The notes under the pieces were generated by a model. The model worked only from the letters and a program-made list of their open reading frames with translations. It ran no database searches and was not told where the DNA came from. From positions 1-51,592 of the forward strand of contig JAZDJU010000034.1 in assembly GCA_043803685.1 (NCBI GenBank): DNA of 51,592 bases, written 5' to 3'. Source of the stretch: Candidatus Omnitrophota bacterium. GTDB lineage: Bacteria > Omnitrophota > Omnitrophia > Omnitrophales > Aquincolibacteriaceae. Every line of letters starts with the position of its first letter. Within the stretch, counting starts at the first letter, position 1. A program made the position numbers and the translations under genes. Positions 1 to 30,807 of the stretch are shown piece after piece.

Positions 1-1
1 C

Positions 2-1965: not shown

Positions 1966-1989
1966 TTCAAATAAGGAGAGATCAAGAAT

Positions 1990-3856: not shown

Positions 3857-4391
3857 CGCACTTATCCTATTCGCTACTCTTGCGGCGCTGAACGGCTGCG
3901 GAACAACGCCGGTGCCTCTTCCGGTCTTTTCGGGTGATGCTCGCGCCGAACATATTAAATCCGTTGCTCAGGCTCCGCCCAGCCATCTCGCGACCGTGAT
4001 GAAGTGTATTGCAGAGAACCTCGAGGAAAATGCCGGACTCAAGATCGCCGGAGTGATTTCAGAGGAAGGGGAATCGCCGTATGTTATTGCGACTCCTGAG
4101 AAGTCGGGCGGATTACTTGTGATGCGAATCAAGGAGATCGGTATCGCTGACCCATCCTCTGGGATTCGGATGACGCTGCAATTAAGAGTGTTCGATGGCT
4201 TGGGCGAACATATTTACACCAGAAGCATTACGGGTGTCTCAGGGGCTAACCCGCCCCAAAACCCGTCTCCCGGCATCGAAGAGGCGCTCCGGACTGTCAC
4301 GAAGGATATTCTCCGGCAATATGCCAAAGATCCCACTCTTCGTCCGCTTATTCTCAAATACAAGCTCGGTTCCTTGCTGAAGTTTGGCTAA
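3840..4391 (+). CDS. Putative lipoprotein
   Basis: Signal peptide with lipobox (MHRSVNALILFATLAALNG-C). Alternative ATG at 3831. Confidence 0.6.
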   Translation: MHRSVNALILFATLAALNGCGTTPVPLPVFSGDARAEHIKSVAQAPPSHLATVMKCIAENLEENAGLKIAGVISEEGESPYVIATPEKSGGLLVMRIKEIGIADPSSGIRMTLQLRVFDGLGEHIYTRSITGVSGANPPQNPSPGIEEALRTVTKDILRQYAKDPTLRPLILKYKLGSLLKFG

Positions 4392-4408
4392 CACCCGTTG
4401 AGGAGGAT

Positions 4409-5449: not shown

Positions 5450-5721
5450 GAATCCTGCTTATGTCGTTATCGTGATTAAATGCGTCGCAAGGTATGGCTT
5501 AAATGGATTCATCAATACCTGCTTAGTTTAAATTTGAAGAAATATTTTTTGATTAGGACGAGGTTCGCCGCGGAAGTATACTACCCAAATAGAGAGAGGG
5601 CTTTTGTGCGGCCTAGCAGTGAAGACGAATTTGAAATAGTTTAATTTTTTTTGAAAAGTAATCAGCTTCTTAAATAGTCCAGTTGCTTAAGAACAGAGAA
5701 GATGCGGGAAAAGAGGCTTTT

Positions 5722-8700
5722 ATGAGTAACGATTTTCGAAAAACAATTTTGTTGGATGACGATCCAGCAGAGCTTGACTATTTCGAATCACATCAATCAA
5801 TTGCTGACGCTATTGATGTATTAATTCAGACTGAGAAAGGGAGGAAATCCATAGCTCTTATCGGTACAAGAGGAAGCGGTAAATCTTCCATCATTAATTT
5901 TCTCTCGAAGATCTTTAATCGAAATAACCATGCCAAAATCTTTACATTTGATGCCTGGTCTCACTCGGGGGATCCGCTGAGGCGTTCTTTTTTAGAGGAA
6001 TTCGTAAAGTTTTTAGAGAAAATCCATTGGGTCGAAAAAAATGAATGGCAAGTAGCGTTAGAGACTCTTAGTAGAAAGAGAGAGGAACGGGATACTAAGA
6101 CGGAGCCAATTTTAACATTACCTGGAAGGCTAATAATTGCTTCGACGATTTTTTTACCTTTGGGGTATGCGCTTTTTGGATTAATTGACAAAGAAGTGCC
6201 TGTTTCCAAGATTGTCTTTGGTTTTACGATTCAATTATGGGCGTTTGGTCTATTCATGGTTTTTCTTCCTGTCATCATTGTATTGTTGACTTGGTTATGT
6301 TGGAGACCTACCTGGAAGTGTTTCAGAAAAGAGTTTTGGACGAAGCACCGAGCCCCACATGGAGCTGATTCATTGTTTTCTTTCTTTATAAATAAAGTAA
6401 GGGAAACTAACAGTGTGACAACAATAAGAACTCCGGATCCGACCACTATTGAATTTCAAAATGTCTTTAAAGATATATTGAATGATGTCTTAGATTTGGA
6501 TGATAGTCGGAAGAATGAACGCAAGCTCGTGGTGGTTATTGATAATTTAGATAGGGTGGATCAGAGCGAGGCTTATTCTATATGGTCAACCATGAGAACT
6601 TTTTTTGATCTGTGGAGTGGACAAACTCAAAAGAATTGGTTGGAAAAATTTTGTTTAATTGTTCCTTTTGCGCCAGAATTTCCAAAGGAGGTTTTTGATT
6701 TTGATGAAGCGGCTGTTGAGCCGGGTAACGATAAACGGCAGCAAGACATTTCCAAAGGGGGGACTGGAGTTTCCTTCGTGGAAAAAACATTCCAAGCGAT
6801 TTTTTACGTACCTCTTCCAGTCTTATCGAAATGGAAAGATTATCTAGTTGCTGAGCTCGGTAAAGCATTCCCGGAGCATAAACAAAGCAAACCGGACGTT
6901 TTTCATCAAATTTATAGGATATATGATATTGCGAAAGTTCAAAAAGATGGTCCTCCAACGCCACGTGATTTGAAACTATTTATAAACAAAATGGGTTCCC
7001 GCAATCGCATTTGGGGAAATAATATAGAATTAGCGCATCAAGCAATTCATGTGCTTTATTTTGATGAGATGCAAAAAGGCCGATCATTTGATCTTATTAA
7101 GTGGTCTGTTATTGAAAAGCGGATTTTGAATATGTTTGACAACGAAGAGCTGCAGCGGAATTTGGCCGCTTTGCATTTTAATGTTAAAGCAGATATCGCA
7201 TTGCAAGCTTTGGCGGGAGGGCAGGTCAGGGCGGCTTTGCAAAAAGGGGACAAGGATAGTCTGAAGCAGTTATCAGAGAACGTTACTGGGTTTTTCACAG
7301 TTCTTGAAAGAGAGGTTACCGATAATTGCATGTCTTGGGTTGAAGCGGAACCTAATACGATACCTATGGCGGCTATGGCGATGGGTGTGTTTGCTGATCG
7401 GTCTGCCCCTGAGTGGAACCGAATCGAAGATCACTTGCAAAGCGCCGCTTCAAAAGTTATTGAATGGCGATCTGTCGATGAACAAGTTGCCGAGGGGCTC
7501 TCAATCGTTATTCAAAGAGCAACTGCCAAAGGTGCTGAATCCGTTCTCGAAAATCTTATTGATAGTATTTCAAGGACAGCACCAGAGCAAAAGTCTGATC
7601 AAGGCAAGACTGTTATACCAAAGCCGATCGAGTTAATTAAACAACACGTCAAGGGACTTGGCCGAATTCTTAAAGCATTTGAACGCACAGGACAAGAGCG
7701 TCTAAGGGGGAGGTTTAGGATCCCTGGGATTGAGAGAACTTATGTTCAAGTGCTGAGTTGCCTTGGGTTGGAGTCAGATGCTAATAATGTTGCGCAGTAT
7801 TTTGTCCCTACAGCTGATGGTGCTAAAGTTGTGGAGGAATTTTCACGAATTTGTAATGAGGGACAGTTTTTAGATATTCATGCTCAATCAATCCGGATGG
7901 CAATTAAGATTGGTCCGGAATGGCCTTGGCATAATTTAATAGGTCCCCTTCATACTCGATTGCAAAATACCAATAATTTAACACCGGTTGAGATAACTGG
8001 ATGTGTTCTTGCTTTTAATTATTTAGTTAATAGCAAGGTTGTCCAAAATGCGGAAACTTCTCTGGAGGAATTATGCAATCAAGGGCATCTTTTCCACCAT
8101 TTAGCAGCCGTATCGAATGATGCAAAGGGTTTTGCCTCATGCTTAGTGCCGTTAACTTATTACAATCCGACCGGACAATTGTCTATACGTCGGCCTGTCG
8201 GGAATGTCGCAAGCGGTTTGCAGGAATATAGAAATGCTCTTGCGAATCCCCTAAGTAAGAAGGATGCTGTCGACGCATTTTCTAACATGTTAGTTGATAT
8301 GAATAAATTAGCCGAGTTTCTAGAAAAAACTCAAAATGTTACCGAGCAACACGCTCTTGTCTCGCATGTTTTTAAAGCAACCTTATCAACTGAAAACGGT
8401 TATAAAAATCTTCCTTCGACCCAGCTAGTAAAAGCTTATCATTGCTACCGTTCACGAATTGATGACGCGTTGTTTGAAAAGCACATTTTGAATCTTGTCG
8501 AAAAAGACAGCCTTATGAAAGTTCTTGGGGAAAATGTATTTGAAAATGAATGCGCGTCGCTATATCTGGAAGTAATTCGAGCTAAAGATAGATGTAAAGA
8601 GCAGGTCGCCTTCTTTATTGATTTTTTATTAAATGGCTTGCGCAATGTCCATGCTGATATCTGGAAAAAGCAGTTGTCGTCTGAAGGCGATATCCTTCGG

Positions 8701-9273
8701 TTGGTCATTGAATTGGCCAAACAAGGAAGTCCAGTCGATTTGGCAGAACATTATCATGAGGCTCTTTTGGACCATGCGCGAGATGTTATGGACGAAAAGA
8801 TTTATCCAAGCAAGTTGGTTGGTGAATGGAACTATGTTTTGCTGGCCTTAAAAGATGATTGGAAAGAAACTTTTTTGAAAAATATGAGGGATAAACTTCT
8901 TATTGAAGCTGAAAATCAGAAAAAAACTAAAATTTTGGAGTTGTATAGTGATGCGTATAAGGATAATCAATTTCTGGAAGATAAATCAGAAGATATCGTT
9001 AGACGAATGTTAACGCATATTGTTAAACGAAGTGATGGGAAAGAGCTCGCTACAATAGAAGGCTTTCTTAAGTTCAAGGCGGACCTTTTTAAGAAAGCTC
9101 CGAAAACAGTGCGAAGTATTTTCTCTGAAGTTCTCTGCGATGCCCTGCAGGGTTCGAAAGAATCTGCAGATGACAGCAAAGCGAGGTTGTCAAATATAGC
9201 CGCTTTATTAGGGATTCAAAAGTCCGGGAATCCAAAATCTTCAGATGAAAACGTGGCCCCTCCCGCGGCTTAG
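5722..9273 (+). CDS. KAP-family P-loop NTPase with two TM helices and a long helical C-terminus
   Basis: Walker A GTRGSGKS, FDAW, two TM segments inserted in the NTPase, Walker B VVVIDNLDR, FVEKTF and TPRDLK. ATG 5722 follows AAGAGG. AT-rich coding sequence. Confidence 0.85.
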   Translation: MSNDFRKTILLDDDPAELDYFESHQSIADAIDVLIQTEKGRKSIALIGTRGSGKSSIINFLSKIFNRNNHAKIFTFDAWSHSGDPLRRSFLEEFVKFLEKIHWVEKNEWQVALETLSRKREERDTKTEPILTLPGRLIIASTIFLPLGYALFGLIDKEVPVSKIVFGFTIQLWAFGLFMVFLPVIIVLLTWLCWRPTWKCFRKEFWTKHRAPHGADSLFSFFINKVRETNSVTTIRTPDPTTIEFQNVFKDILNDVLDLDDSRKNERKLVVVIDNLDRVDQSEAYSIWSTMRTFFDLWSGQTQKNWLEKFCLIVPFAPEFPKEVFDFDEAAVEPGNDKRQQDISKGGTGVSFVEKTFQAIFYVPLPVLSKWKDYLVAELGKAFPEHKQSKPDVFHQIYRIYDIAKVQKDGPPTPRDLKLFINKMGSRNRIWGNNIELAHQAIHVLYFDEMQKGRSFDLIKWSVIEKRILNMFDNEELQRNLAALHFNVKADIALQALAGGQVRAALQKGDKDSLKQLSENVTGFFTVLEREVTDNCMSWVEAEPNTIPMAAMAMGVFADRSAPEWNRIEDHLQSAASKVIEWRSVDEQVAEGLSIVIQRATAKGAESVLENLIDSISRTAPEQKSDQGKTVIPKPIELIKQHVKGLGRILKAFERTGQERLRGRFRIPGIERTYVQVLSCLGLESDANNVAQYFVPTADGAKVVEEFSRICNEGQFLDIHAQSIRMAIKIGPEWPWHNLIGPLHTRLQNTNNLTPVEITGCVLAFNYLVNSKVVQNAETSLEELCNQGHLFHHLAAVSNDAKGFASCLVPLTYYNPTGQLSIRRPVGNVASGLQEYRNALANPLSKKDAVDAFSNMLVDMNKLAEFLEKTQNVTEQHALVSHVFKATLSTENGYKNLPSTQLVKAYHCYRSRIDDALFEKHILNLVEKDSLMKVLGENVFENECASLYLEVIRAKDRCKEQVAFFIDFLLNGLRNVHADIWKKQLSSEGDILRLVIELAKQGSPVDLAEHYHEALLDHARDVMDEKIYPSKLVGEWNYVLLALKDDWKETFLKNMRDKLLIEAENQKKTKILELYSDAYKDNQFLEDKSEDIVRRMLTHIVKRSDGKELATIEGFLKFKADLFKKAPKTVRSIFSEVLCDALQGSKESADDSKARLSNIAALLGIQKSGNPKSSDENVAPPAA

Positions 9274-9326
9274 CCAACCAGCTGTAATGTCGTAATTTTC
9301 CTTAGGCGCGAGATTAATACGGCCAT

Positions 9327-9755
9327 ATGACTGAAATCGAATCTTATCTAGCATTATTAACAGGAACCCATCCCTCGATTCAATCTATTTGGCTAATTGG
9401 ATCAAGAGCTAATGGCGCATCAAATGTTAATTCCGATTGGGACTTGATTGTATTTGCAACGGAAGATATTTTACAAAATCTTCAGAGCTGTAGATCGATT
9501 CATGTGAGAGAAATAGATCTTCTCGTTGTCTATAATTGCAAAGGTGATTTTAAGAAACCGTGGGCTGAGCAGGACGGAAATTTCAAAACCGGCAATCTTG
9601 AAGATTGGGGTTGGCAGGAACAATCGGAAACAAAAGCTACGTATAGGCAACAATGGCGGAAAAAAGGGCCGACCACAGTTGATGGCTTTACTGAATTGGA
9701 TTATTGTGATGAAAGGTTAATAGCCCAAAAGGTATGGCCTCAACGAACCTGTTAG
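9327..9755 (+). CDS. Minimal nucleotidyltransferase (Pol-beta superfamily, MNT-like)
   Basis: IWLIGSRANG....SDWDLIV (GS + DxD) and a later IDLLV strand. Confidence 0.75.
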   Translation: MTEIESYLALLTGTHPSIQSIWLIGSRANGASNVNSDWDLIVFATEDILQNLQSCRSIHVREIDLLVVYNCKGDFKKPWAEQDGNFKTGNLEDWGWQEQSETKATYRQQWRKKGPTTVDGFTELDYCDERLIAQKVWPQRTC

Positions 9756-10132
9756 ATCTAAGCGCGTTTTACATAGTGTAATAATGGAATGTCGTTCTTT
9801 ACATAAAACATGAGATTCTTTTGTGAGTGATGAATGAGAAAAAAGAAGCGGAAAAGAGTGGGTGCGAAGAAAGGGGGGGATGCAACCTCCGAAGTTTCTC
9901 GGGACATTCGAGCCCTTCAGAAAGCAATATTAACTGAGGAGGAACGAAAAGGATGAAGCGTCAGATATCTGGGGCTGTCAATATCCATCCCAGGATTTCA
10001 TAATTTGCGTGCATTGCGAGATTGTTCCTATATAGACAGGTGACGACAGAATGGGGCCAGGGATGACCGACTGCCGTCTTTTGCGTCATTGATGTCTGAC
10101 TAAACTGCTTAAATGGAAAGTTCAAAGGAGGG

Positions 10133-10618
10133 ATGATGACGTCTATGGATTGTTCTACCATTGTCACTTCGTTGGTGACCAGCATCGGAGGAACCGGAGT
10201 TTTTATCCTTATTGTTGCGTTCTTTGGGAAAAGGTGGCTCGGTTCAAGAATCGAAGAAGCTATTAAACATGAGTATGGCAAGATGCTAGAAGAATTTAAA
10301 TTTTCTTTTCGACAGCGAGAGCAAGCGGCCGCGATCGCTAAGCTTTTTTCGAAGTGGATTAAATATAATGGGCTGGAGGATAAGTTATTGAAAGAAAGCG
10401 AAAAGCGGGATCATTTCGAAGAAATAAATAGGCTGAATTGGGAATTAGCGATTTGGATTCCTGATGAAGAAATTGTGAAAAAAATAAACGGAAAGCTTGC
10501 TAATAACAATGAAGAAGATATTAGAAGCTTAATTTTGGACGTGAGATCTCTTGTCTTGGGCAAGAAGTCTGATGGCATAAATGGAACTGAGCTGACCTAT
10601 TTTTCAGTAAAAAACTAG
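10133..10618 (+). CDS. Hypothetical protein with an N-terminal TM helix
   Basis: 161-aa ORF after RBS AAGGAGG, with hydrophobic segment GGTGVFILIVAFFG followed by a helical region. Confidence 0.7.
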   Translation: MMTSMDCSTIVTSLVTSIGGTGVFILIVAFFGKRWLGSRIEEAIKHEYGKMLEEFKFSFRQREQAAAIAKLFSKWIKYNGLEDKLLKESEKRDHFEEINRLNWELAIWIPDEEIVKKINGKLANNNEEDIRSLILDVRSLVLGKKSDGINGTELTYFSVKN

Positions 10619-10690
10619 CGCCGAAGTAGTAGTTCATTTGATGTAAAGTCACTTTTTGTGTGAAATGCGAAATTGTTCCTAAGGAAAGAC

Positions 10691-11281
10691 ATGAAAAAAC
10701 AAACGAATAAGATCTGTCAGTTCAGGATCGCGCTTCAGGATGTCAGTCCGCCAATCTGGAGGCGGATCCTTGTGCAAAGTGATATATCGCTTCACCGCCT
10801 CTCATCTACGATCCTGCTCGCGATGGGCTGGAGCGGGGGGCATTTGCATCAGTTTGAGATCAATGAGAAATCCTACGGGATACCTGATGACGATTTTGAT
10901 TCGGATGAGGACATGAACGATGAACGAGGCTTCCGGCTCGACGACTTGGATCAGGGGGCGCTGAAATCGTTCACCTTCGAATATGATTTCGGTGACGGGT
11001 GGCGACACGCGGTCCAGCTGGAGGATGTCTTGGAGCCAGCCAAGGGGCAAAAATATCCTCTTTGTATTAGCGGCGCCAGGAACTGTCCGCCGGATGATTG
11101 CGGCGGCACGGGAGGCTATGAGGAATTTCTCGCCGCAATCCGGAATCCCAAGCACCCGGAGCACAAATCCATGACCGAGTGGATCGGAGGTAGGTTTGAT
11201 CCCGAAGCGTTCAATTTGGATCAAGTGAACGGCGTTCTCCAGGATGTGGCGAAATCAGAGAAGCAGTGGTGGGGCTGTTAG
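10691..11281 (+). CDS. Plasmid pRiA4b ORF-3 family protein
   Basis: PPIWRRILV, HLHQF, FEYDFGDGWRH, G.RNCPPDDCGG..GY and FDPE.F signature motifs. Confidence 0.9.
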   Translation: MKKQTNKICQFRIALQDVSPPIWRRILVQSDISLHRLSSTILLAMGWSGGHLHQFEINEKSYGIPDDDFDSDEDMNDERGFRLDDLDQGALKSFTFEYDFGDGWRHAVQLEDVLEPAKGQKYPLCISGARNCPPDDCGGTGGYEEFLAAIRNPKHPEHKSMTEWIGGRFDPEAFNLDQVNGVLQDVAKSEKQWWGC

Positions 11282-11493
11282 AAAGATCGCGCACATCAAG
11301 CCGGGTCTTCCTGCGTTTTAACACTGGCGAGATTGAAAGCTGTCTGCAGGCTGTCACGGAGCAACGAGACCCCGAACGATGTTCGTGACAATTTATTTCT
11401 AGTATAAAAACGTTCGCAAACATTGAACGGACCCTTCTTAACTCCATGTCCCATGAGGGGCTATCTACTATATAGAAGGGAGCTATCCATGAA

Positions 11494-11712
11494 ATGAATA
11501 AGCAAGACGGTATTTCAAGGTGTGAAGTCTCGGGGAAGTTGCTGGATGTCGACGAATTGTCGCAGCGCCTTGGGGTTAAGGTTAAGACCGTGTATTGCTG
11601 GGTCCATGCCCGGCAAATACCCTATGTCAAAGTGGGGCGCTTGGTAAAATTTGATCCTCTGGATATCTCACAATGGGTGGAAAGCAGAAAAGTCAGGTCA
11701 ATCCGGGGTTGA
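11494..11712 (+). CDS. Excisionase-like HTH DNA-binding protein (HTH_17)
   Basis: LLDVDELSQRLGVKVKTVYCWV...IPYVKVGRLVKFDP; lies next to the integrase. Confidence 0.8.
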   Translation: MNKQDGISRCEVSGKLLDVDELSQRLGVKVKTVYCWVHARQIPYVKVGRLVKFDPLDISQWVESRKVRSIRG

Positions 11713-11737
11713 CAAGGTTTAACAATGTTGATAACCT
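11709..11737 (+). promoter_or_regulatory. Putative sigma70 promoter with overlapping dyad, upstream of the HTH-integrase genes
   Basis: TTGACA (11709) - 17 bp - TAACCT with a TG extension. The imperfect inverted repeat AGGTT-TAACA-A-TGTTG-AT-AACCT spans the spacer. Confidence 0.45.
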
Positions 11738-11758
11738 GTACCTGGCTTTGGGAACGAC

Positions 11759-11944
11759 ATGGAAAAAAATAAGCGATTCTATCTTGATGAGGTCGTCAAA
11801 ATGCTCGGGATACCGCGGAGCTCCTATTACAACTGGGAGCGTGCGGGGAAGATTCCTTTGCCGAAGCGTGATCCGATGAGTCATTATCGCTATTGGACGG
11901 AAGAAGACCTTCTGAAACTTAAGAAGGTCACGGGGAGAGGCTGA
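11759..11944 (+). CDS. MerR/AlpA-like small HTH protein (possible recombination directionality factor)
   Basis: EVVKMLGIPRSSYYNWERAGKIP.P.RDPMSHYRYWTEEDL, a MerR-type winged HTH. Confidence 0.8.
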   Translation: MEKNKRFYLDEVVKMLGIPRSSYYNWERAGKIPLPKRDPMSHYRYWTEEDLLKLKKVTGRG

Positions 11945-11945
11945 A

Positions 11946-13190
11946 ATGGGCGTTTTTCAAAAAAAATGCGGAGTTTGTGATGGGTGCCGGGAGGGTCGCG
12001 CCAAGTGTAAGGCGGGGACCTGGTATGTGGATTATTACGTTAACGGCCGTCGTCGCCGCGAAACTGCCCCCAATAAGGCGATGGCAGAGGACCTGTTGAG
12101 CAAACGCAAGATACAGATTAAAGAGAATAAGTATTTCGACATCAGGAAGGAAAGCCGCCTTACGTTTCGTGAGCTTTCAGAGAAGTATCTCAAACATTGC
12201 GAGCTGACCGGAAAAAAATCGTGGAAAAGCACTGATGTTGGCAACATGGAACATCTGGTCGATTATTTCGGGGCTATGCTCGTCAGTGAGATAAGCTCTG
12301 AAGATGTTGAGGTGTACAAGCAAAAGCGTTTGAAAGATGTGAAAATTTCGAAGAGGCGGAAAATCGAAATGCATGTGAAGCCCTCTACGATTAATCATGA
12401 ACTTTCCTGCATGCGAACCGCGATCAATAAAGCGATTTATGAATGGCGTGATCCCGAAAATAAGCGGCTTCCATTGTTTGCAGGTCCCAATCCCGCCGCA
12501 AGGTTTAAAAGACTCAGGGAAATTTCAAGAGACCGTTTTCTGACCAAGGGCGAATTGATAAAGCTTCTCGAGGTAAGTGATCCGGAGCTTCGCCAGTATA
12601 TCCTTGTGGCCGTAAACACGGGTATGCGAAAAGGGGAAATGCAGGGCATGACCCCTGCGGCTGTGAAGCTTGATTTAAATTACATTTTTCTTCCTGAAAC
12701 CAAGAACGGGGAAACGCGGTATGTGCCGACGAACGAAACCGTGAAGTCAATTCTCCGAGGTTCTTTTGATTTTTCATATAACCCGCGGAAGGCCTTTGCG
12801 ACTGCGCTGGGTCGCGCGGAGATTAAGGGCTTGCGCTTCCATGATCTCCGGCATACGTTTGCCAGTTATTTGGCGCACCTTGGGGTGGATCTTTATACGA
12901 TTTCTGTATTGCTTGGACATAAGACCAAGGGGGGCGTATACTCCATCACCGCTCGCTATACCCATTTGCAGCAGGACCATCTTTTGACGGCGGTTAAAAA
13001 ATTGGATACCTATTTGAGCGATGTTTTGCCTGGTTACAGAGAGGGTACATATAATGAAGGGCGGGGCGGATTCAAGACGAAGGAGCCTGGGACTGTTTGG
13101 GCGGTCAAGTACCGTCAATTACCCTCTAAGATGGACACTTTTTGGACACCTGGGCGAAAGCGTAAATCTCTAACTACTTTATTCAATTAG
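11946..13190 (+). CDS. int: Tyrosine recombinase / phage-type integrase
   Basis: Catalytic set intact: TGMRKGE (R), TKNG (K), HDLRH (HxxR), LGH and TARYTH (Y). N-terminal arm-binding beta strand WYVDYYVNGRRRRE and a core-binding domain. Confidence 0.95.
   Translation: MGVFQKKCGVCDGCREGRAKCKAGTWYVDYYVNGRRRRETAPNKAMAEDLLSKRKIQIKENKYFDIRKESRLTFRELSEKYLKHCELTGKKSWKSTDVGNMEHLVDYFGAMLVSEISSEDVEVYKQKRLKDVKISKRRKIEMHVKPSTINHELSCMRTAINKAIYEWRDPENKRLPLFAGPNPAARFKRLREISRDRFLTKGELIKLLEVSDPELRQYILVAVNTGMRKGEMQGMTPAAVKLDLNYIFLPETKNGETRYVPTNETVKSILRGSFDFSYNPRKAFATALGRAEIKGLRFHDLRHTFASYLAHLGVDLYTISVLLGHKTKGGVYSITARYTHLQQDHLLTAVKKLDTYLSDVLPGYREGTYNEGRGGFKTKEPGTVWAVKYRQLPSKMDTFWTPGRKRKSLTTLFN
13132..13149 (+). 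repeat. Tandem TGGACAC repeats, putative integrase arm-type binding sites
   Basis: TGGACAC at 13132 and 13143 (11-bp period), about 50 bp from the tRNA remnant. Confidence 0.45.
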
Positions 13191-13198
13191 GGATAAGG

Positions 13199-13255
13199 GG
13201 ATAGAGCATCAGCCTTCTAAGCAGGGGGTCCCGCGTTCTACTCGCGGCAGGCGCG
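13199..13255 (+). pseudogene. 5'-truncated tRNA-Arg(TCT) remnant, att junction of the island
   Basis: GGATAGAGC-A-TCAGC-CTTCTAA-GCAGG-GGGTC-CCGCG-TTCTACT-CGCGG-CAGGCGC-G gives the D-loop 3' half, anticodon TCT, T-arm and 3' acceptor strand. The 5' acceptor/D-stem strand is absent, the anticodon stem has an A-A mismatch and the T-loop is TTCTA. Confidence 0.8.
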
Positions 13256-13475
13256 TTTTTTCGTGATGTAAAGAAAAAACGTCCTTCCGTTTTTACCTGA
13301 AGCGTATTTGTCCGTGAAGCGAATCCGCTGAGGTTTAATTTTTTTGTTTTAATGCGTTCCCCGCCACAAAGCGCTGGCGGGTCTGTCCAACAGCGCTTTG
13401 CGGACGGGTCCGCCGCGCTGTTTGGCGGAGAATCGCGCCGGGGTCGTAGTTTCTTGAGGACATTTTAGTGGTGCG

Positions 13476-13512
13476 AAAAGCCCAAAGGGGGGGTGCCCCT
13501 TTGGGCTTTTTT
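13476..13512. terminator. Intrinsic (possibly bidirectional) terminator
   Basis: AAAAGCCCAAAGGGG-gggtg-CCCCTTTGGGCTTTT(TT), a perfect stem with A and T tails. Confidence 0.75.
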
Positions 13513-13648
13513 GTCTTATGTGGGGCGAAAAAATAATGTCCAATTGACTAAGTTTAGATGAAATTTCTATTGATAAATGAGTCATTTTTGTCTTAACCGT
13601 ATTGTTTTGAATGAGTTGCGTGATTTAAAAGATAATAACATAGCCATC

Positions 13649-13677
13649 TTGACAAAATTACAATCATTCGACATATT
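13649..13677 (+). promoter_or_regulatory. Putative sigma70 promoter of the large secreted protein
   Basis: TTGACA - 17 bp - CATATT in a very AT-rich intergenic region. Confidence 0.4.
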
Positions 13678-13861
13678 TTTACTGTATGAAGCGATTTAAT
13701 AAATCAAAACATAGCGTTTATATATGAATATAATTTTATGAAGAATAAATCTAAATATAAATTCTCATGGTTTGAAATTTCTAGGGAAGCGTGCTACGTT
13801 TCAGCAGTACGAATTAAGCATGTTTTAAAAGAATTTAGTTGTTAACGTATTGGGAGGCATG

Positions 13862-16800
13862 ATGCTTTCAGGTGGGAATCAAAAACAAGTTAGACGGATC
13901 GTAAGCTTCCTGACGATTTGTTTTTTTCTTGTTTCCCAGGTCTCATTTGCGAACCCTGGGGCAGGGATCGAGGTCGCTGCGAATCGGGAAATGCCCGGGT
14001 TCCTCAGGATCGATATTCCCACGGAGCTGGCAAGTCTTGATGGCATCTGGGAAGCGCCTTCTTCGGTCGATTCCAGGGTCGTCCTGCATATCCAGAATGC
14101 TCACGCCAATTATGGGGCCCAGAAGAAGATCGAAGAGCTTCTGGAGTATCTGAACAAAACTTATGCCATCAATACGATCTTTGTCGAAGGCGCGGCTGAG
14201 GACCTGAACCCCGACTACCTCAAACTCTTCCCTGACAAAGCGCGGAATCTGGAACTTGCGGATCTCCTGGCCCAGCAAGGCGAACTTACAGGCGCCGAAC
14301 TTTATCTTTTAGAAGCAGACTACGGACCACAGACCACAGACCCTAGACAAAAAAGGGATTCAAAGCTTCAGTCTCCAGTCTCCAGTCTCCAGTCTGGCCC
14401 CGTCAGGGGCGTGGGGATCGAGGACGCGGGACTTTACCGCAGTAACTACGAAGCTCTCAAGAAAGTCTTTGGCGCCGAGGCGCTTGTGAACCGTTACCTC
14501 CAGGGGTATGAATCCCGGCTTGAAGCGCTGTCCTCAAAGATCTTCACGAATGATCTCCGAAGAATTCTTGCGGATTGGCAGAAATTCGAGAAGGGACACC
14601 GCGAGTTCATGCCGTATATTCGCAGCCTTGCTGCCGATGCGAAGCGTGTCCTGGATCTCGATCTGGAAAGCCTGTTCTCACAAGTGGAATGGCCGCAGAT
14701 CACGCGCCTTCTTGTCCTTCAGGGGATGGAAAAAGAACTGGATACTGCCAAGGCATTGGAAGAGAAAGATAAGCTCATAAGCTTTTTGAAAGCCAAGGGC
14801 GTTTCCCCGCGAATCATTGCAGAAGTGGAGAATTTCAAGGAACAGCGTTTGAGCGTCCGCCAAGGCGAGGGCGAAATGATGGAACCTCGGGATGTCCTCG
14901 AAGCGCTTGTAAAGGAAGCCGGTCCCAACGGTTTCCGGTTCAGTGAGTATCCCGCGTTCAGCCTTTACGCCGGGTATCTGATCCTCAAAAGCGAACTGGA
15001 TGCCAAAGGGCTTTTTGAAGAGATCAAAGCGCTTTTCGGGAAGATCCTCGGCAAGCTTGCGGAAAGTCCGCAGCAGAAGAGCCTGCTGGAACTTTATCGC
15101 GACGAGGAACTCGCCCGGAAACTCTTGAGCCTCGAACTGAGCCGCCGGGATTGGAAGGATGCTCTCGGGCGTAAGACCGAGATCCAGATGGATTCGATGG
15201 TCTCCCGTCTCAAAGATCTTAGTAGCGCAGTCACAAAAGAAATGAATCTTGCACCCTCCGACCTCGAAACCAGGAAACTCAGCCCGAAATTTCAAGAGCA
15301 GATACTGGATCTTTATGGCTCGGCATTCAGCTTTTATGAGTTTGCCCGCCAGAGAGAATCCATGTTCTATGAGAAGATCAACGCGGTGATGGGGAAAGGC
15401 TCTTCAAGCAAAGCCGTCCTGATCACCGGAGGTTTCCACACCGACGGCATGACCGATCTTTTCCGCGAACATAACATCAGCTACGGTGTTCTTACCCCGC
15501 GCCTTATGGAAAAGAGCGACGAGAAACTCTACCGGAACACCATGCTGCAGAATGAAAAGCAGCTTTTCACGATCTCGTATTTGGAATTGGCGAACGGCGC
15601 CACCTCCCTTGCGACTCGAAAAGATCAGGGGTTTGACCCGTCAAAAGAGCTGGGCGATTTGATCAAGGCTTTTCGCAGCAAGCTTCCTAAAGAATATGCG
15701 ACGGGCCAGGGAGTTGCGGATGCTTTTAATGGTTCAATAGCGGCCAAGGCGTTTGGAATTACACTGGAATTCCAGCCCGAGAAGACATCTGAAACGACTG
15801 GCATCGATACCTATAAGGTCAAAGGTCTCCAAAAGTTCGAGGGCATCGAAGTTCCCGTCTCCCGCTCCGAGGCGCGAAGTTTGTTGGATATTTTTCAGCG
15901 GGGTATTGAAGCCAAAGTTAGTGCGTATTCGAACGGTTATCCGCTATCTCAATCAGCGTTTGATGAGGCTGCTGAGCGGACCCGTGTACTCATGCAAGCT
16001 GACTCGATTTCCGGTACGGTAGATGCCGTGGCGGCGAATTTTTTTACGAGCATCGATGGTTTAACTGATCCTGAGGACACCGCCCTTTTGAATGTCTTGT
16101 TAAAAACAGTTTTATTTGATGAGCAGGGACGTTTTCGCGAAGACCGCGATCGCCAGGCTCGAATCGCGAGTATTGTCTCTGAAGCTCGTCCGGGAGGGGC
16201 GTGGGCGATGCTTTCGAATGAGGCTAAACAGAAACCGTTAAGCCAAGTAGTGACACAAATGATCGGGTTGGTTCAGCCCATTATTAACACTCGCAAGGGA
16301 AAAGCAGGGGTCGATACAGGTCGGCTTGAAGCAGAAATCAGGTTTGCGGGCAATGTTTCTCGCCCATATGAAGTTGCTACCCTGGCTCAAGGGTTAGCCT
16401 CGGAACTCGGCCGTTTGAATTATCTAGCTACACCTGAGCAGACCGAGGCGATTCAAAATGTTGTTGATCAGTTGAAAAAAATTGAAGGCGAATATCGGCG
16501 CCGTTCGGAGGCGAGGTTGGGGGAATTGTACGGCTATATGATGCAGAAAGTGATGTTGCCGGCCGTGCTTGCCATGTGGCTTGCCGTGCCGTCCTTTGCT
16601 GCTGCCGAGAACAGCCAACCCTATAGCGTACGCCTTGATCCCACGATGGGGATGGAGGCCGGAGCTACAAATCTTTACTCGGCTTACAGGGGGCTGAATG
16701 AATTTGTGATCAATCCCGTGACCGCGCACATTCCTTATGTTGAAGATAACGCATTAGGTCGACTTGCTAAATGGGGCACCTTGGATAATATAACCGTAGG

Positions 16801-19800
16801 TTTCGTGGTCGCTCAACACGAGATCTTCGGTCATGGTGCAAGGTCACGAGGGGAAGGGGATTATGGTTCGACGTATGAAATTGAATTTGCCCCCCCCCGG
16901 CAATGGGAGGATTTAAAATGGAGCACGCTCGTGGGTTGGTGGTCGGGAGCTGCTGCGCGGGGCGACATGACGTATACGGTCGATGGATCTCTCGCAACAA
17001 CCGCCGGCGGAATGGAAAGTACCCAAGTGATGTCGGACGAGATCCGCAGAAGCGTGTACCGGAATGGCGGGACTTATCAGGATGGGCTGCTTTACTATCT
17101 TGCGAAACTTGACTTGTCTAATTACATCTTCAATACGTCCAACCCGGGTTCCCACCCAGGCCAACAGCTTTTAAATGGGGGGGGCGCTAGCAATGACGTC
17201 CAGAAGTATTATGAGAATATGGTTAAAAAGTATGGAGAAGATGCAGGGCTTTGGGAGGATATGCAGCGCGTGGCTCTCTGGAACGCGCTCGATCCCACGC
17301 TTTGGATGGCGTTGTGGGAGCAGTTGGATTATGTGGGGAGAGGCAACAAGGATTTCACATTGCCACGGATCCTGCCTTACACCGGGGCCAACCTTACGCC
17401 GCTCGGTCCGGAATATTATCTGGGGGCGAACTTCACTGCGGCCGAACTTTACTGGGACATTTATGGAAGACGAGGTGTCGGTCCATCCGGAGATTTCTAC
17501 GGAGTTGGGTTGCGTGTCGGAGATATCGATTTAGGCAATGGTTACTTTTTAGGGGTGAACCTGGATGGGTGGAAGCAGGAGGGCGAAGTCGGATATTCCG
17601 CAGAAGCGACGATCGGCCGGAATATTACCGATAATCTCAAAGTCGTTTTGGGTGCGGGCTATAAGACGGATGGCGATCTCAAAGGGCAACCCAGCGACGA
17701 AGGTCCGTCGGTATCCATAAAGTTCGAGGTTCCTTTTTCTAAACCTCGCTCCGAGGTGAGGGGGAAGGAGATCGAGGAACTTACGTCGAGTCTTGCCCGG
17801 CTTTCCCCTGAGGTTTTGGGATCGCTTGCCGAGATGTCGAAGCCGTCCTATAGTTTTTTAAGTGCGACACGGCAGAAGGAAAATACGGCCAAACATACTG
17901 CGCTGCTTGATATTTTGAAGAAGAATGGAGTGATCGTGCCCGAGGCGTTGGGGGCGCAATGGCCGGAACAGGGAAGAGGCATGGATGGGGCGTATGTGAC
18001 GGCACCTTTTCTGGAGATCGTCCGAAAGATCGTTACTGACACGATCGACGGACAAAGACTTGCCGAAAGGACGGCGTTTGTTAGGGGGCAGAACCGTCGC
18101 GTAGCACAGGTCCGTGGGCTTGCGGAAGGAGCTGTTTTAGCGCTCGAAAATGAGGAGCTCCGTGGGGGTTCCCTTCCTGGGCAAATGTATGGAACTGCTT
18201 ATACCCCAGCGGTGCCGTTTCCCGCGACGAGTCATTTTGATAAGTTTGAGGAGAGTGTTGCCGGGTTGCCGGCAGAAGTTCTCGCGGAGCTGGAACGATT
18301 ATCGAAAATAACGCCTGCTTCTGTGGAGGCTACGACAAAGAATCATGAGGGGATCCTGGCTCTTTTGGGACAGCAAGGTGTGATTGTACCCCTGGCGTTG
18401 GGCGTCGAATGGCCCAAGGATGATACGAGTGTTAGCGGGGATGGAGTGGACCGGAACGTTGCCGCGCCGTTGTTGGAGCGGATATGGATCGTTCTGGGAG
18501 ATAAAACCAAAGTAGCTAACGCAGTGCTCGAGAAGCAACGGTTTGAGAAAATCGCTGAAGATATCCGTGCCCGGAACCGTCGCGCGGCGCAGGTCCGTGG
18601 GCTTGAGGAGGGAGTAGCCCTCCGGCTCGGAGCGGAAGGAGCGGATTATCCGCAGTTTACGTCGAGTATGGCCGGGCTTTCCCCTGAGGTTTTGGGATCG
18701 CTTGCCGAGATGTCGAAGCAGTCCTATAGTTTTTTAAATGCGACACGGCAGAAAGAAAATACGGCCAAACATGCTGCGCTGCTGGGAGTTTTAGAGAAGA
18801 ATGGAGTGATCGTGCCCGAGGCGTTGGGGGCGCAATGGCCGGAACGTGGGAGAGATATGGATGGGGCGTATGTGACGGCGCCTTTTCTGAATTTCGTTCA
18901 AAAAGTTGTAAGCCAAAATGCTGCTGAACCGGCCGCCTCCCGTTCGGAAGCGAGGGTAACGGCTGTTCGTGAAGCAATCAACCAAGCCGATTTTTCGGTT
19001 GTCGGGGAAGCTAAGCTTGGGACGAATTTCGAGGCGGTTGGAAAGCTGGAGAGCCGGGGAGCGATAGGGTTCGTCATTGTTGCGGCCGTGGCTGGGATGG
19101 AGTTCGACAATAGGACGGATAAATTGAAGCCGGAGCAAATGGCTGACGTCATTGTGCAACTTGCAAGCGCGAGTGTAGCGAAGGCTGCGGGCTGGGTCCA
19201 GGCGATCCGGGATATTTTTGACGGGTTGGCTGCGAAGTTATTTCCAAAGACTGAAAAAGTTTCGATCATGGACAAGCCCGGCGTGGTGTTCGCTCAGCTA
19301 GGCAGGGAAGCTTTGAAAGATATTGGAGCGGGTGACCTAGCGCCATTGGGGAATAAATTTCAGGAGATGGTTTACATCGTACCTGTGCAGAATGAAGCGG
19401 GGAAAAAAGAGGTTCAGCCGCTTATCGATGAGGCCAAGGTTCGCTTGGCCGCTATTCTCAAAGATCTGGATGCGAATAAGCGATTTGACATTGTGCCGAT
19501 GGTGATTGATAAAAACAGATCGAGAACGGCGCGAGCGGCGCTCGCAAAACTCGCAAGTCAGAGAATGAAGACGATCGCGGCGGTTGCGCCCGGCCAGCGT
19601 AATTATGTTCTTATGGGTGCTGGTGAAGGGTTTTTGGATGTTTTTAACGAGGGGGGATTGCTGCCGGCAGTTATGATCAACGAAGGTTATAGCAAGGATG
19701 CCAACCGTCGTGTTGCAACCTCAACTCTCGCATCGATCGTGTCCCAGAGGCTCCTGAGCGCCAGTGAGGTTGATGCGATCAGGGAAGTTCTTAGTGGAAA

Positions 19801-19900
19801 GAAAGATGAAAAAGGCTTCTATTCGTTTAGTGCGGAAGCCCTGAATAAGATGCTGACGATCGCCATGCAGGTGGCTCAATCGATACAGTCCGCCGCATAA
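13862..19900 (+). CDS. Large (~2010 aa) secreted modular protein with RSE[AV]R-delimited modules
   Basis: Uninterrupted ORF (TTG 13850, ATG 13859/13862 after GGAGG). Sec-type signal peptide ending VSFA-N. N-terminal domain with HIQNAH, VEGA, GIED and TGGFH; four RSE[AV]R motifs; internal repeats. Confidence 0.85.
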   Translation: MLSGGNQKQVRRIVSFLTICFFLVSQVSFANPGAGIEVAANREMPGFLRIDIPTELASLDGIWEAPSSVDSRVVLHIQNAHANYGAQKKIEELLEYLNKTYAINTIFVEGAAEDLNPDYLKLFPDKARNLELADLLAQQGELTGAELYLLEADYGPQTTDPRQKRDSKLQSPVSSLQSGPVRGVGIEDAGLYRSNYEALKKVFGAEALVNRYLQGYESRLEALSSKIFTNDLRRILADWQKFEKGHREFMPYIRSLAADAKRVLDLDLESLFSQVEWPQITRLLVLQGMEKELDTAKALEEKDKLISFLKAKGVSPRIIAEVENFKEQRLSVRQGEGEMMEPRDVLEALVKEAGPNGFRFSEYPAFSLYAGYLILKSELDAKGLFEEIKALFGKILGKLAESPQQKSLLELYRDEELARKLLSLELSRRDWKDALGRKTEIQMDSMVSRLKDLSSAVTKEMNLAPSDLETRKLSPKFQEQILDLYGSAFSFYEFARQRESMFYEKINAVMGKGSSSKAVLITGGFHTDGMTDLFREHNISYGVLTPRLMEKSDEKLYRNTMLQNEKQLFTISYLELANGATSLATRKDQGFDPSKELGDLIKAFRSKLPKEYATGQGVADAFNGSIAAKAFGITLEFQPEKTSETTGIDTYKVKGLQKFEGIEVPVSRSEARSLLDIFQRGIEAKVSAYSNGYPLSQSAFDEAAERTRVLMQADSISGTVDAVAANFFTSIDGLTDPEDTALLNVLLKTVLFDEQGRFREDRDRQARIASIVSEARPGGAWAMLSNEAKQKPLSQVVTQMIGLVQPIINTRKGKAGVDTGRLEAEIRFAGNVSRPYEVATLAQGLASELGRLNYLATPEQTEAIQNVVDQLKKIEGEYRRRSEARLGELYGYMMQKVMLPAVLAMWLAVPSFAAAENSQPYSVRLDPTMGMEAGATNLYSAYRGLNEFVINPVTAHIPYVEDNALGRLAKWGTLDNITVGFVVAQHEIFGHGARSRGEGDYGSTYEIEFAPPRQWEDLKWSTLVGWWSGAAARGDMTYTVDGSLATTAGGMESTQVMSDEIRRSVYRNGGTYQDGLLYYLAKLDLSNYIFNTSNPGSHPGQQLLNGGGASNDVQKYYENMVKKYGEDAGLWEDMQRVALWNALDPTLWMALWEQLDYVGRGNKDFTLPRILPYTGANLTPLGPEYYLGANFTAAELYWDIYGRRGVGPSGDFYGVGLRVGDIDLGNGYFLGVNLDGWKQEGEVGYSAEATIGRNITDNLKVVLGAGYKTDGDLKGQPSDEGPSVSIKFEVPFSKPRSEVRGKEIEELTSSLARLSPEVLGSLAEMSKPSYSFLSATRQKENTAKHTALLDILKKNGVIVPEALGAQWPEQGRGMDGAYVTAPFLEIVRKIVTDTIDGQRLAERTAFVRGQNRRVAQVRGLAEGAVLALENEELRGGSLPGQMYGTAYTPAVPFPATSHFDKFEESVAGLPAEVLAELERLSKITPASVEATTKNHEGILALLGQQGVIVPLALGVEWPKDDTSVSGDGVDRNVAAPLLERIWIVLGDKTKVANAVLEKQRFEKIAEDIRARNRRAAQVRGLEEGVALRLGAEGADYPQFTSSMAGLSPEVLGSLAEMSKQSYSFLNATRQKENTAKHAALLGVLEKNGVIVPEALGAQWPERGRDMDGAYVTAPFLNFVQKVVSQNAAEPAASRSEARVTAVREAINQADFSVVGEAKLGTNFEAVGKLESRGAIGFVIVAAVAGMEFDNRTDKLKPEQMADVIVQLASASVAKAAGWVQAIRDIFDGLAAKLFPKTEKVSIMDKPGVVFAQLGREALKDIGAGDLAPLGNKFQEMVYIVPVQNEAGKKEVQPLIDEAKVRLAAILKDLDANKRFDIVPMVIDKNRSRTARAALAKLASQRMKTIAAVAPGQRNYVLMGAGEGFLDVFNEGGLLPAVMINEGYSKDANRRVATSTLASIVSQRLLSASEVDAIREVLSGKKDEKGFYSFSAEALNKMLTIAMQVAQSIQSAA
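14316..14396. repeat. Heptamer-periodic inverted repeat inserted in frame in the large gene
   Basis: CAGACTA CGGACCA CAGACCA CAGACCC TAGACAA ... CAGTCTC x3 CAGTCTG. Confidence 0.75.
17781..18889 (+). repeat. Intragenic direct repeats (~230 bp, 17781-18013 and 18657-18889) with a diverged middle copy
   Basis: Near-identical DNA at an 876-bp offset encoding LSPEVLGSLAEMSK...GVIVPEALGAQWPE...DGAYVTAPFL. A diverged protein-level copy lies near 18245-18480. Confidence 0.9.
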
Positions 19901-28893: not shown

Positions 28894-28896
28894 ATC

Positions 28897-30135: not shown

Positions 30136-30297
30136 CCTCTGGGCCATGCGCTAAAGGCGTCTGGACACTTTTTAAAATTTTTGGATATAACTCTAATAGC
30201 AAAAAAACTAGTTTAGTTATCCATCTTGTTGCCGTATTATTTAGAGTAGTTTAGACTAGCATTAGGCAGTGGCAAACATAGAAACAGGAGGAATAAC

Positions 30298-30777: not shown

Positions 30778-30807
30778 TTCGTAAGAAATACGAAAGTGTG
30801 TTTTTTG

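Follow-up and report, generated by a model that had tools for sequence, protein, structure and literature searches.

The 2013-residue protein encoded on the forward strand of the window (the whole 51.6-kb stretch of DNA that was analysed) carries, between the second and third of four short R-S-E-x-R motifs, a complete copy of an exported protein that normally stands alone. Judged from its sequence, this 410-aa block (16517..17746) is a whole gene product and not a domain, and it belongs to an unnamed but widespread family of exported proteins of ~420 aa, whose predicted layout is a signal peptide, a helical domain carrying a metal-site-like HExxGH and, C-terminally, a barrel-like sheet of eight strands with a final Phe. 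The presence of a whole exported protein as one module of a motif-separated chain suggests cutting into separate proteins, and we consider it somewhat probable that the long protein is a motif-punctuated polyprotein that would be cut at RSExR, its modules then following their own targeting signals.

The gene runs from ATG 13859 to 19900, in a stop-to-stop frame that opens at 13829. A Shine-Dalgarno sequence (GGGAGG) lies directly 5′ of this ATG, and a database copy of the protein (P0156) has the same length of 2013 aa as the reading frame counted from it; TTG 13850 is an alternative start. From either codon to 19900 the frame is open throughout (~6 kb at 52% GC). The protein begins with a putative signal peptide (13859..13951), read from a basic n-region and a hydrophobic core ending in VSFA, which appears as a helix in the structural model (residues 10-32) and is present in the consensus over 45 relatives. 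This segment opens a conserved N-terminal domain (13859..15862; family alignment and AlphaFold2), which we call the chassis together with a C-terminal domain (18956..19897) that ends in QSAA and was aligned to the C-termini of 24 complete relatives. Between them, RSEAR motifs 1, 2 and 4 (15863..15877, 16502..16516 and 18941..18955) and RSEVR motif 3 (17747..17761) delimit module 2 (15878..16501, 208 aa), the block, and module 4 (17762..18940, 393 aa, with three internal repeats). No family was recognised for modules 2 and 4, and a Pfam search with the whole protein gave zero matches. A type IV pilus/T2SS-like cluster is located 5.5 kb downstream of the gene.

The initial annotation had proposed that an entire stand-alone gene was captured in frame between two such motifs. 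The block indeed lies within a single open reading frame between motifs 2 and 3, and capture is supported by colinearity with free-standing proteins from the signal to the last strand. A phmmer search returned 331 representative homologues at E≤1e-3; among the best 150 of these, 147 are free-standing proteins of 214-581 aa, and only three are embedded copies, in giants of 5705, 5200 and 2313 aa. The matches commonly cover most of query positions 10-405, with only 23-34% identity between the block and free-standing members. A family profile built from 102 stand-alone homologues matches the block over positions 6-413 of 417 (E 8.6e-100), and it covers at least 90% of the length of 142 of the 147 free-standing homologues, 99 of which had contributed to the profile. 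At the level of sequence comparison, colinearity with the stand-alone proteins extends over the full length of the block. An independent protein of 5705 aa carries the same block, likewise framed by these motifs. Since stand-alone forms are abundant, capture probably proceeded from the free gene into the long one, an argument from abundance and not from a rooted tree. The nearest ESM-Atlas clusters are all labelled 'hypothetical protein', with Pseudomonadota, Elusimicrobiota and Spirochaetota the commonest phyla, and searches of Pfam, NCBIfam and PDB sequences with the block gave no match.

At its N-terminal end the block retains a signal-peptide-like segment, MMQKVMLPAVLAMWLAVPSFA (16538..16600), composed of MMQK, a hydrophobic core and PSFA followed by AAE. 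As had been noticed, it starts seven codons past motif 2, at about residue 894 of the chain; the assignment as a signal is heuristic. The segment lines up with the signal peptides at the N-termini of stand-alone homologues, forms a helix (residues 2-22) of low pLDDT in the model and has a KD 10-mer maximum of 2.09. Among the 143 stand-alone members that reach 350 aa or more, 113 have a hydrophobic N-terminal segment by a hydropathy rule. The methionine of the putative start is conserved in the P0006 copy, which is 62% identical to the block. At the other end, the string VSIKFEVPF was found to finish at 17737, three codons ahead of motif 3. Its phenylalanine (F407 of the block) aligns with the C-terminal Phe of homologues, and 37 of the 147 stand-alone homologues terminate in F, Y or W. 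In the chain SKP-RSEVR comes next, and even a putative cut would leave 3-8 residues between this Phe and the new C-terminus.

The AlphaFold2 model of the block (pLDDT 90.1, pTM 0.88) comprises the signal-like helix, a helical domain containing HExxGH, and then eight long antiparallel beta-strands (17369..17737; 10-16 residues each by DSSP) that are barrel-like and run to the terminal KFEVPF. The aromatic/glycine strings from which a barrel-type C-terminus had been suggested all fall within 17414-17737, and the prediction agrees with that suggestion: the first 12 Foldseek matches listed are all outer-membrane beta-barrels with probability 1.00. The Foldseek matches include porins, NspA (1p4t), Opa60 (8qwq), NanC (2wjq) and PagL (2erv), at a best E of 6.6e-4 and with low TM-scores of 0.15-0.46. 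The helical domain produced no clear fold match and no PDB sequence match. It contains HEIFGHG at 16817..16837, where the initial annotation had placed a zinc-peptidase-like motif. In an alignment of 103 sequences, H101, G105 and H106 are invariant and conservation reaches at least 90% at E102, G107, R109 and R111, and HE..GH is found in 139 of the best 150 representatives. The block keeps all family invariants (H-E-x-x-G-H-G-x-R-x-R, G165, D227 and K383/G386). The assignment to a peptidase is only partly supported: the metal-site-like motif is conserved, but peptidase families, Pfam models and solved structures offered no match to the block. Neither the block nor the other 102 family members gave a significant Pfam match, and the sole peptidase match among the 103 was M50, in two members with a best E of 0.055. 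The canonical zincin motif HExxH was also considered and rejected, since HEIFGH spaces its histidines five apart (i, i+5; that is, HExxxH). HEIFGH presumably resembles the HELLGH of DPP III (M49).

RSExR is enriched throughout the family and is placed at module boundaries. RSE[AV]R occurs four times in the window protein, against an average of 0.006 and never more than 1 in 20,000 shuffles, and only two more copies occur elsewhere in the window in six frames. Across 73 family proteins (169,180 aa) there are 250 copies of RSExR compared with 3.65 in shuffles (maximum 14), an enrichment of ~70-fold, and the motif is present in 49 of 53 closer relatives. All six arginine and all six serine codons are used at 208 copies of the motif; this synonymous variation indicates that the signal operates at the protein level. 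RSExR falls inside none of the 20 Pfam domain stretches recognised in 13 proteins, an HPr domain and a receiver domain each occupy one complete inter-motif segment, and the similarity between the window protein and P0006 starts precisely at the motif (885 to 2151) while the adjoining modules are unrelated. Hydrophobic 12-mers start 0-15 aa C-terminal of 25 of 248 motifs (10%), against a background of 400 in 10,898 positions (odds ratio 2.9, p=9e-6); a hydrophobic segment lies just before only 3 of the 248. In a distant branch, 16 of 19 proteins, together with P0009 and P0041, keep the cargo architecture without RSExR, so modular fusion does not need the motif; a search of this branch for a substitute motif found none. 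A literature search found no published description of RSExR.

The N-terminal domain defines a family of 72 proteins (71 besides the entry for the window, with E reaching 0 for the closest), and 562 genomic stretches encode relatives. The host phylum is Omnitrophota and member lengths range from 0.9 to 5.7 kaa. The layout consists of a signal-bearing N-terminal domain of ~620 aa, a C-terminal domain of ~300 aa, and highly variable cargo between them; the chassis also exists without cargo, in relatives of 935-1055 aa with zero or one motif. The N-terminal domain (AF2 pLDDT 79.6) has invariant residues H80, H85, E113 and TGGFH530 (numbered from TTG 13850), and the signature HIQNAH ... VEG ... TGGFH is present in the window protein. 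Foldseek against the PDB gave no match at E≤1e-3, with the erythromycin-esterase-like 2rad ranked 44th at E ~1. PF04187 (ChaN/Tiki) scored 26.8 bits in the distant relative P0225, below the 27.7 cut-off; of 45 close relatives, 2 gave weak matches to it (best E=0.042), and the window copy gave none. The link to ChaN/Tiki, within the Tiki/TraB/ChaN/erythromycin-esterase superfamily, is borderline on these sequence scores and is the only one connecting the domain to a hydrolase superfamily. The C-terminal domain is weakly conserved, with only the final alanine invariant among 24 complete relatives and a family ending of [AS]A. Cargo includes effector-like modules (Fic, NUDIX, ART-PolyVal and protein kinases) and ordinary enzymes (CMP kinase, guanylate kinase, signal peptidase II, hexokinase, PGI and iPGM). 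Paralogues occupy conserved housekeeping neighbourhoods (thrS-infC-pheST-mgsA and lipB-uvrD), with no dedicated secretion genes adjoining.

In the proposed mechanism, a whole exported protein would have entered, in frame and as one of the cargo modules, an Omnitrophota polyprotein in which fixed chassis ends enclose interchangeable modules, each a complete protein, with R-S-E-x-R as the separator. An endoprotease would cut the chain at or beside each motif, a step that the family-wide statistics make plausible, and the released modules would each go by their own address. For the block, cutting would place a Sec signal seven residues after one motif and a Phe-ending strand three residues before the next, and the freed protein would take the route of its free-standing relatives, through export to insertion into the outer membrane. 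The protease candidate is the conserved N-terminal domain, the only universal one that appears enzyme-like; if exported by its own signal, it would be on the wrong side of the membrane for cutting cytoplasmic junctions. That the chain is cleaved, on which side of the membrane and by which protease, and where the block ends up and what it does there, are inferred here. Considerations of topology point in the same direction: based on the positive-inside rule and the stop-transfer behaviour of Sec, two signal-type segments with basic n-regions, separated by ~870 hydrophilic residues, could not both export in an uncut chain.

An unlikely alternative, yet one to be taken seriously, is that the chain stays intact as a multi-domain membrane-anchored protein, in which the block's 'signal' is an internal transmembrane helix, the block a tethered domain, and RSExR a flexible linker, a topogenic positive patch or a binding site. 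The available part of a preprint (10.64898/2026.06.07.730766) regards each multi-enzyme long protein as one polypeptide anchored in the membrane, and fold and Pfam searches with the N-terminal domain yielded no protease. However, a motif of five residues, three of them charged and invariant, with such enrichment exceeds what a linker needs. A stop-transfer helix would be expected to strand the outer-membrane-barrel-like domain in the cytoplasm, the basic flank YRRRSEAR would face outside, contrary to the positive-inside rule, and the module retains a signal and a terminal-Phe strand that make sense only for a free protein. Less probable still, and improbable on the sequences at hand, is a delivery route akin to that raised by the initial annotation, in which the polyprotein would reach a host or prey bacterium by secretion or injection and be cut there, the block then using the Sec and BAM machineries of the prey to reach the prey outer membrane. 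The putative signal peptide of the whole protein, the effector-like cargo and the downstream pilus/T2SS-like cluster are compatible with this route, as are proposals, in the portions of the literature available to us, that Omnitrophota are host-dependent or predatory; but the paralogues lie in housekeeping neighbourhoods without adjacent dedicated secretion genes, and the ordinary cellular enzymes among the cargo fit self-use at least as well.

The initial annotation had also offered internal initiation, at ATG 16538 or 16541 as the preserved start of the captured gene, which would make N-terminal proteolysis unneeded. The methionine shared with the P0006 copy fits such a start, and GAGG-like strings are frequent in the motif codons. 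We do not favour this explanation and regard it as very improbable: ATG 16538 lacks a Shine-Dalgarno sequence at normal spacing, the sole purine-rich run (GGGGGA) ending 14 nt ahead of it, whereas real starts in the window carry GGAGG-type sites much nearer the start codon. Moreover, the block has no stop codon, so its C-terminus would still require cutting, and the family-wide motif at the amino-acid level would be left unexplained. That mis-assembly or sequencing errors fused neighbouring genes is suggested by the unusual architecture alone, and the chance of this is negligible given the length of the stop-free frame at its GC content, the same motif-framed block in the independent 5705-aa protein, and the same design among the database relatives and their genomic stretches.

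Beyond this locus, we tentatively suggest that Omnitrophota may generally express ordinary cellular proteins through motif-punctuated polyproteins, in which cytoplasmic enzymes, membrane proteins and Sec/BAM-targeted envelope proteins share one chain between a fixed metalloenzyme-like N-terminal and a fixed C-terminal domain, are cut at RSExR and sort themselves individually; we would put this wider idea at rather less than even. If it is true, the embedded protein, complete from signal to terminal Phe, would be the clearest natural marker of modules meant to be free, and RSExR would provide the cleavage map that has been missing for one class, at least, of long Omnitrophota proteins.

Compared with its unnamed stand-alone family, the block shares full-length colinearity, all invariants, a signal-like N-terminus and the terminal Phe strand, but has neither its own start nor its own stop and is flanked by RSExR within a 2013-aa chain. 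With small outer-membrane beta-barrels and barrel enzymes it shares a C-terminal meander of long antiparallel strands, alternating hydrophobics and an aromatic end; it differs in the ~250-aa helical domain ahead of the strands and in its low TM-scores, and sequence similarity to these proteins was not found. Viral polyproteins and Kex2-type precursors likewise place short consensus sites between complete functional units of one translation product, but the RSExR protein is encoded by a cellular gene of a bacterium, with a housekeeping neighbourhood around it, and its cognate protease was not found. Omnitrophota 'multi-enzyme' long proteins, class 1 of 10.64898/2026.06.07.730766, come from the same phylum, tile unrelated enzyme families along one polypeptide and carry N-terminal signal or transmembrane segments; the accessible sections of that preprint make no mention of cleavage, a motif, a polyprotein, a linker or processing. 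For Omnitrophota giant genes, the available text of 10.1101/2023.11.21.568195 describes the cleavage points of the proteins as unknown and suggests C39/S8 peptidase domains; it, too, reports no motif that punctuates the chain. Set against these long proteins, as far as the available sections describe them, the RSExR family has smaller members (0.9-5.7 kaa) and N- and C-terminal domains of its own that define it. MARTX toxins, in the excerpts of PMC5218395 and PMC3153235 available to us, carry modular effectors, flanked by conserved regions at the N- and C-terminal ends, and free them by an internal protease; the RSExR proteins share the conserved ends and the swappable central cargo of whole modules, proteolytic release being here a proposal. 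They differ in that RTX repeats and a cysteine protease domain were not detected by Pfam in the window protein, in the putative use of RSExR as the cut site, and in a cargo of exported, membrane and housekeeping-type proteins.

The window carries a single open frame at 13829–19897 whose likely start, the ATG at 13859, has GGGAGG just 5′ to it and yields a product of 2013 aa, equal in length to the database copy P0156. A motif search placed four copies of RSE[AV]R in this frame on the forward strand (nt 15863, 16502, 17747 and 18941), against a mean of 0.006 and a maximum of one in 20,000 shuffles of the protein. The block analysed here (16517–17746, forward strand) is the third of the five inter-motif segments. 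It contains, on the same strand, the signal-like MMQKVMLPAVLAMWLAVPSFA (16538–16600), HEIFGHG (16817–16837), aromatic/Gly strands between 17414 and 17737, and VSIKFEVPF, which ends three codons before motif 3. All of the strings quoted in the initial annotation lie where it had placed them, and the embedded block that it observed is real. Scans of the whole polyprotein and its five segments against Pfam, NCBIfam and PHROGs returned nothing usable. The following module (module 4; 17762–18940) contains a unit of ~85 aa in three copies and also a 41-nt repeat pair (18091–18131 and 18574–18614); the duplication is recent, because copies 1 and 3 share 90% DNA identity over 247 nt (17781–18027 versus 18657–18903).

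With the block as query, HMMER searched 1.84 billion representatives exhaustively and recovered 331 relatives at E≤1e-3, 97 of them at E≤1e-10. Among the best 150 of these 331, 147 are proteins of 214–581 aa (median ~420) and just three sit inside giants: P0006 (5705 aa, 62% identical), P0009 (5200 aa) and P0041 (2313 aa). An alignment of the block with 102 stand-alone members (99 from the 147, together with P0003–P0005) showed H101, G105, H106, G165, D227, K383 and G386 to be invariant and E102, G107, R109 and R111 nearly so; the block keeps every one of them and covers positions 6–413 of the 417 in the family profile. Its hydrophobic N-terminal segment aligns with the N-terminal signal peptides of the homologues, and its F407 with the C-terminal Phe of those homologues that end there. 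By a simple hydropathy rule, a signal-like N-terminus is present in 113 of the 143 stand-alone members that reach 350 aa, and the last residue is F, Y or W in 37 of 147. Comparison of the window protein with P0006 by BLASTP showed that the two share the N-terminal domain and the block and nothing else, the block alignment beginning exactly at the motif. When 49 related loci were scanned with an HMM, the window alone contained the block, and a word-indexed search of proteins of 1108–3528 aa returned only the window's own entry. The proposal that a whole stand-alone protein had been captured between the motifs is thus borne out by full-length free homologues whose ends match both ends of the block, and the reading of the block as a captured complete, normally free-standing protein is well supported.

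To place the embedded copies, a FastTree phylogeny was built from 150 rows (146 stand-alone and four embedded; four representatives under 330 aa were dropped). A single clade of 14 rows (SH-like support 96) unites all four embedded copies with 10 stand-alone members; within it, the copies of the window protein and P0006 are sisters (support 100). The tree is unrooted with long branches, therefore the order of events, stand-alone first and captured later, rests on abundance, and one capture is not told apart from several. Unlike most of the block family, which keeps a hydrophobic N-terminus, six of the 10 stand-alone clade-mates have none (P0011, P0012, P0014, P0016, P0097 and P0144); these may use another export route or be mis-called pieces of longer genes.

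The initial annotation had called the block an outer-membrane protein/peptidase, of which the first part fared better than the second. An AlphaFold2 model computed on the family alignment (pLDDT 90.1, pTM 0.88) begins with a low-confidence helix at residues 2–22, corresponding to the signal-like segment, continues to about residue 275 as a helical domain that bears the HExxGH helix, and ends in eight antiparallel strands of 10–16 residues joined by two-residue turns (285–406). Foldseek matches in the PDB were confined to the strand region, with no structural match for the helical domain. The first 12 matches listed were all outer-membrane barrels at probability 1.00, among them BpsOmp38 (E 6.6e-4), OmpU, NspA, VhChiP, PorB and an OmpC model, and NanC, Opa60, PagL and designed transmembrane barrels appeared further down. 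Because the TM-scores were low (0.15–0.46), we consider an outer-membrane barrel likely but not proven. The two histidines of HEIFGH lie five residues apart, so the motif is not the zincin HExxH; the only apparent precedent is HELLGH of dipeptidyl peptidase III. Pfam gave only noise on the block and the other 102 aligned members, NCBIfam no match and PHROGs no meaningful match on the block, and PDB sequence searches, run with the block and with the A1 and A3 profiles, again only noise; the nearest ESM Atlas clusters are all annotated "hypothetical protein". An outer-membrane and metalloenzyme nature is likely, with putative metallohydrolase as far as the data reach, and the family to which the block belongs is unnamed and widespread.

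The host protein, for its part, is a member of a large Omnitrophota family with fixed end domains and variable cargo. Its first 671 residues retrieve 72 proteins of 1.2–3.5 kaa, its own entry included, and the sources named for them are all Candidatus Omnitrophota/Omnitrophica or named candidate genera. Scanning one genome per GTDB species revealed at least 562 genomic stretches that encode relatives, with several paralogues in each genome; 49 loci were kept, 36 titled Omnitrophota/Omnitrophica/Omnitrophus and 13 "uncultured bacterium". Across 45 sequences, 49 positions of the N-terminal domain are invariant, including H80, H85, E113 and the TGGFH530 motif. The C-terminal domain (~300 aa) is weakly conserved and gave no usable match in an ESM Atlas search. 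Complete members typically finish in [AS]A (...VAA, ...SAA, ...KSA or ...ASA, in most of P0157–P0208 and the complete ORFs of L001–L049), endings that presumably resemble AA-ending C-terminal degradation tags. Between the end domains lies highly diverse cargo. It includes HPr, receiver domains and histidine-kinase ATPase, and besides these methyltransferases, NUDIX, Fic and ART-PolyVal; kinases of the aminoglycoside type, protein kinases and those for CMP and guanylate; signal peptidase II; and hexokinase plus PGI, PPDK and iPGM. Some relatives of 935–1055 aa comprise little beyond the two end domains and have at most one RSExR (L049, 9956–12760; L046, 9947–13111; L031, 1660–4707; L033, 6123–9143). 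It seems that the end domains have a function of their own and that cargo was inserted into them.

In all, 73 family proteins (169,180 aa) contain 250 copies of RSE.R, as against 3.65 (maximum 14) in shuffled sequences. V (72) and A (65) are most frequent at the fourth position, followed by M (27), S (27), T (20) and L (19); the residue preceding the motif is most often Ala (60 of 249). A DNA-level recombination site can be dismissed: the 208 copies in the fetched loci draw on each of the six Arg and the six Ser codons, and such free variation indicates selection on the peptide rather than on a DNA site. When 20 Pfam domain stretches in 13 proteins were compared by hand, none was broken by RSExR; an HPr domain at 1103–1182 fills the whole segment between motifs at 1086 and 1218, and a receiver domain at 716–833 that between motifs at 696 and 837. 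In 25 of 248 cases the motif is followed, 0–15 residues on, by the start of a hydrophobic 12-mer, compared with 400 of 10,898 background positions (odds ratio 2.9, p=9e-6), and in only three of 248 does such a 12-mer end just before the motif. Many of the hydrophobic segments look like classical signal peptides that start directly after the motif, including those of the block and its P0006 copy; however, just one tenth of the motifs precede a hydrophobic segment. RSExR is carried by 49 of 53 relatives at ≥38% identity and by three of 19 more distant ones. This distant branch (P0209–P0226, P0009 and P0041), whose N-terminal domain is 21–26% identical and whose cargo includes hexokinase plus PGI, PPDK, iPGM, signal peptidase II, guanylate kinase and Ser/Thr kinases, lacks the motif in 16 of these 19 and yet has the same fused architecture, block carriers P0009 and P0041 included; no enriched 4-mer outside the N-domain was found there as substitute punctuation. 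RSExR is, in the family that carries it, a protein-level boundary mark.

On the most parsimonious reading, a cut would be made at RSExR or right next to it, whereupon every module would act as the free protein it once was; the case for this is strong but unproven. A cut would leave the Sec-type signal of the block seven residues from a new N-terminus, and its Phe-ending strand would lie three residues from the next motif. The branch without RSExR, which is fused in the same way, counts against this reading, as does the small share of motifs that precede a hydrophobic segment. The polyprotein carries a pair of signal-type segments with basic n-regions, ~870 hydrophilic residues apart, and in an uncut chain the second would act as a stop-transfer helix and strand the barrel-type domain in the cytoplasm. 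Topology, judged by the positive-inside rule and Sec stop-transfer behaviour, thus favours cutting. Internal initiation at ATG 16538, which the initial annotation had offered as another way to free the block, is unlikely because no Shine–Dalgarno sequence stands at the usual spacing, and the suggested targeting of the product to a prey cell is unsupported.

A candidate for the cutting enzyme is the N-terminal domain, the only one that has enzyme-like invariants and is conserved in all members. What connects it with the Tiki/TraB/ChaN superfamily, which includes proteases, is thin: PF04187 scored 26.8 bits in one distant relative, below the 27.7 cut-off, weak matches of this type occurred in two of 45 closer relatives, and Foldseek returned nothing for the domain at E≤1e-3. 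Its own signal peptide may also put the domain on the wrong side of the membrane. A dedicated protease or secretion gene beside the family genes was rejected as a candidate: none adjoins the paralogues in conserved slots, where the conserved neighbours are housekeeping genes. One such slot is thrS-infC-pheS-pheT-mgsA-PilZ protein (individual genes in 13–18 loci) and another lipB-uvrD (12–13 loci); the loci concerned are L010, L011, L017, L018, L021, L022, L024 and others (upstream 1–10000), and L003, L004, L006, L008, L014 and L020. Within the window, a type IV pilus/T2SS-like cluster (25433–35346) lies 5.5 kb downstream of the polyprotein gene, with two PilB/GspE-type ATPases, PilC/GspF, a prepilin, PilM, PilO and a secretin. 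Directly upstream, positions 4001–14000 are low in GC (0.40–0.47 versus ~0.53 elsewhere) and encode a SIR2-like ORF (4409–5449), a KAP-family NTPase of 1196 aa (5683–9273), a PRiA4_ORF3-like protein (10673–11281) and a tyrosine integrase (11946–13190). This stretch looks like an integrated defence or mobile island; no tRNA gene was found in the window, and no tRNA attachment site for the integrase.

A literature search, with subscription journals and bioRxiv supplements outside its scope, found nothing on RSExR or this polyprotein family, and the strings RSEAR, RSEVR, RSELR and RSExR led only to papers on alginate lyases and to one unrelated paper. Long Omnitrophota proteins have been described as a "multi-enzyme metabolic cluster" (10.64898/2026.06.07.730766), and in that text "cleav", "motif", "polyprotein", "linker" and "processing" do not occur. 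For giant genes, 10.1101/2023.11.21.568195 proposes cleavage by C39 or S8 domains and calls the cleavage points unknown. It is stated to be an open question whether the long multi-enzyme Omnitrophota proteins act as one chain or are cleaved into pieces, and a statistically overwhelming boundary motif together with a whole exported-type module makes it directly testable. If cleavage is confirmed, this would be cellular, non-viral gene expression through a polyprotein with swappable cargo, and a widespread, uncharacterised family of putative outer-membrane metallo-enzymes would also be brought to notice. The nearest functional analogue is the MARTX toxins, with conserved ends and releasable modular cargo, although Pfam detects no MARTX-defining domain in the window polyprotein. 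The protein is of a known kind, the fused multi-protein chains of Omnitrophota, and what is new here is that a motif explicitly punctuates the chain and that one cargo module, judging by its sequence, appears to retain both of its sorting signals.
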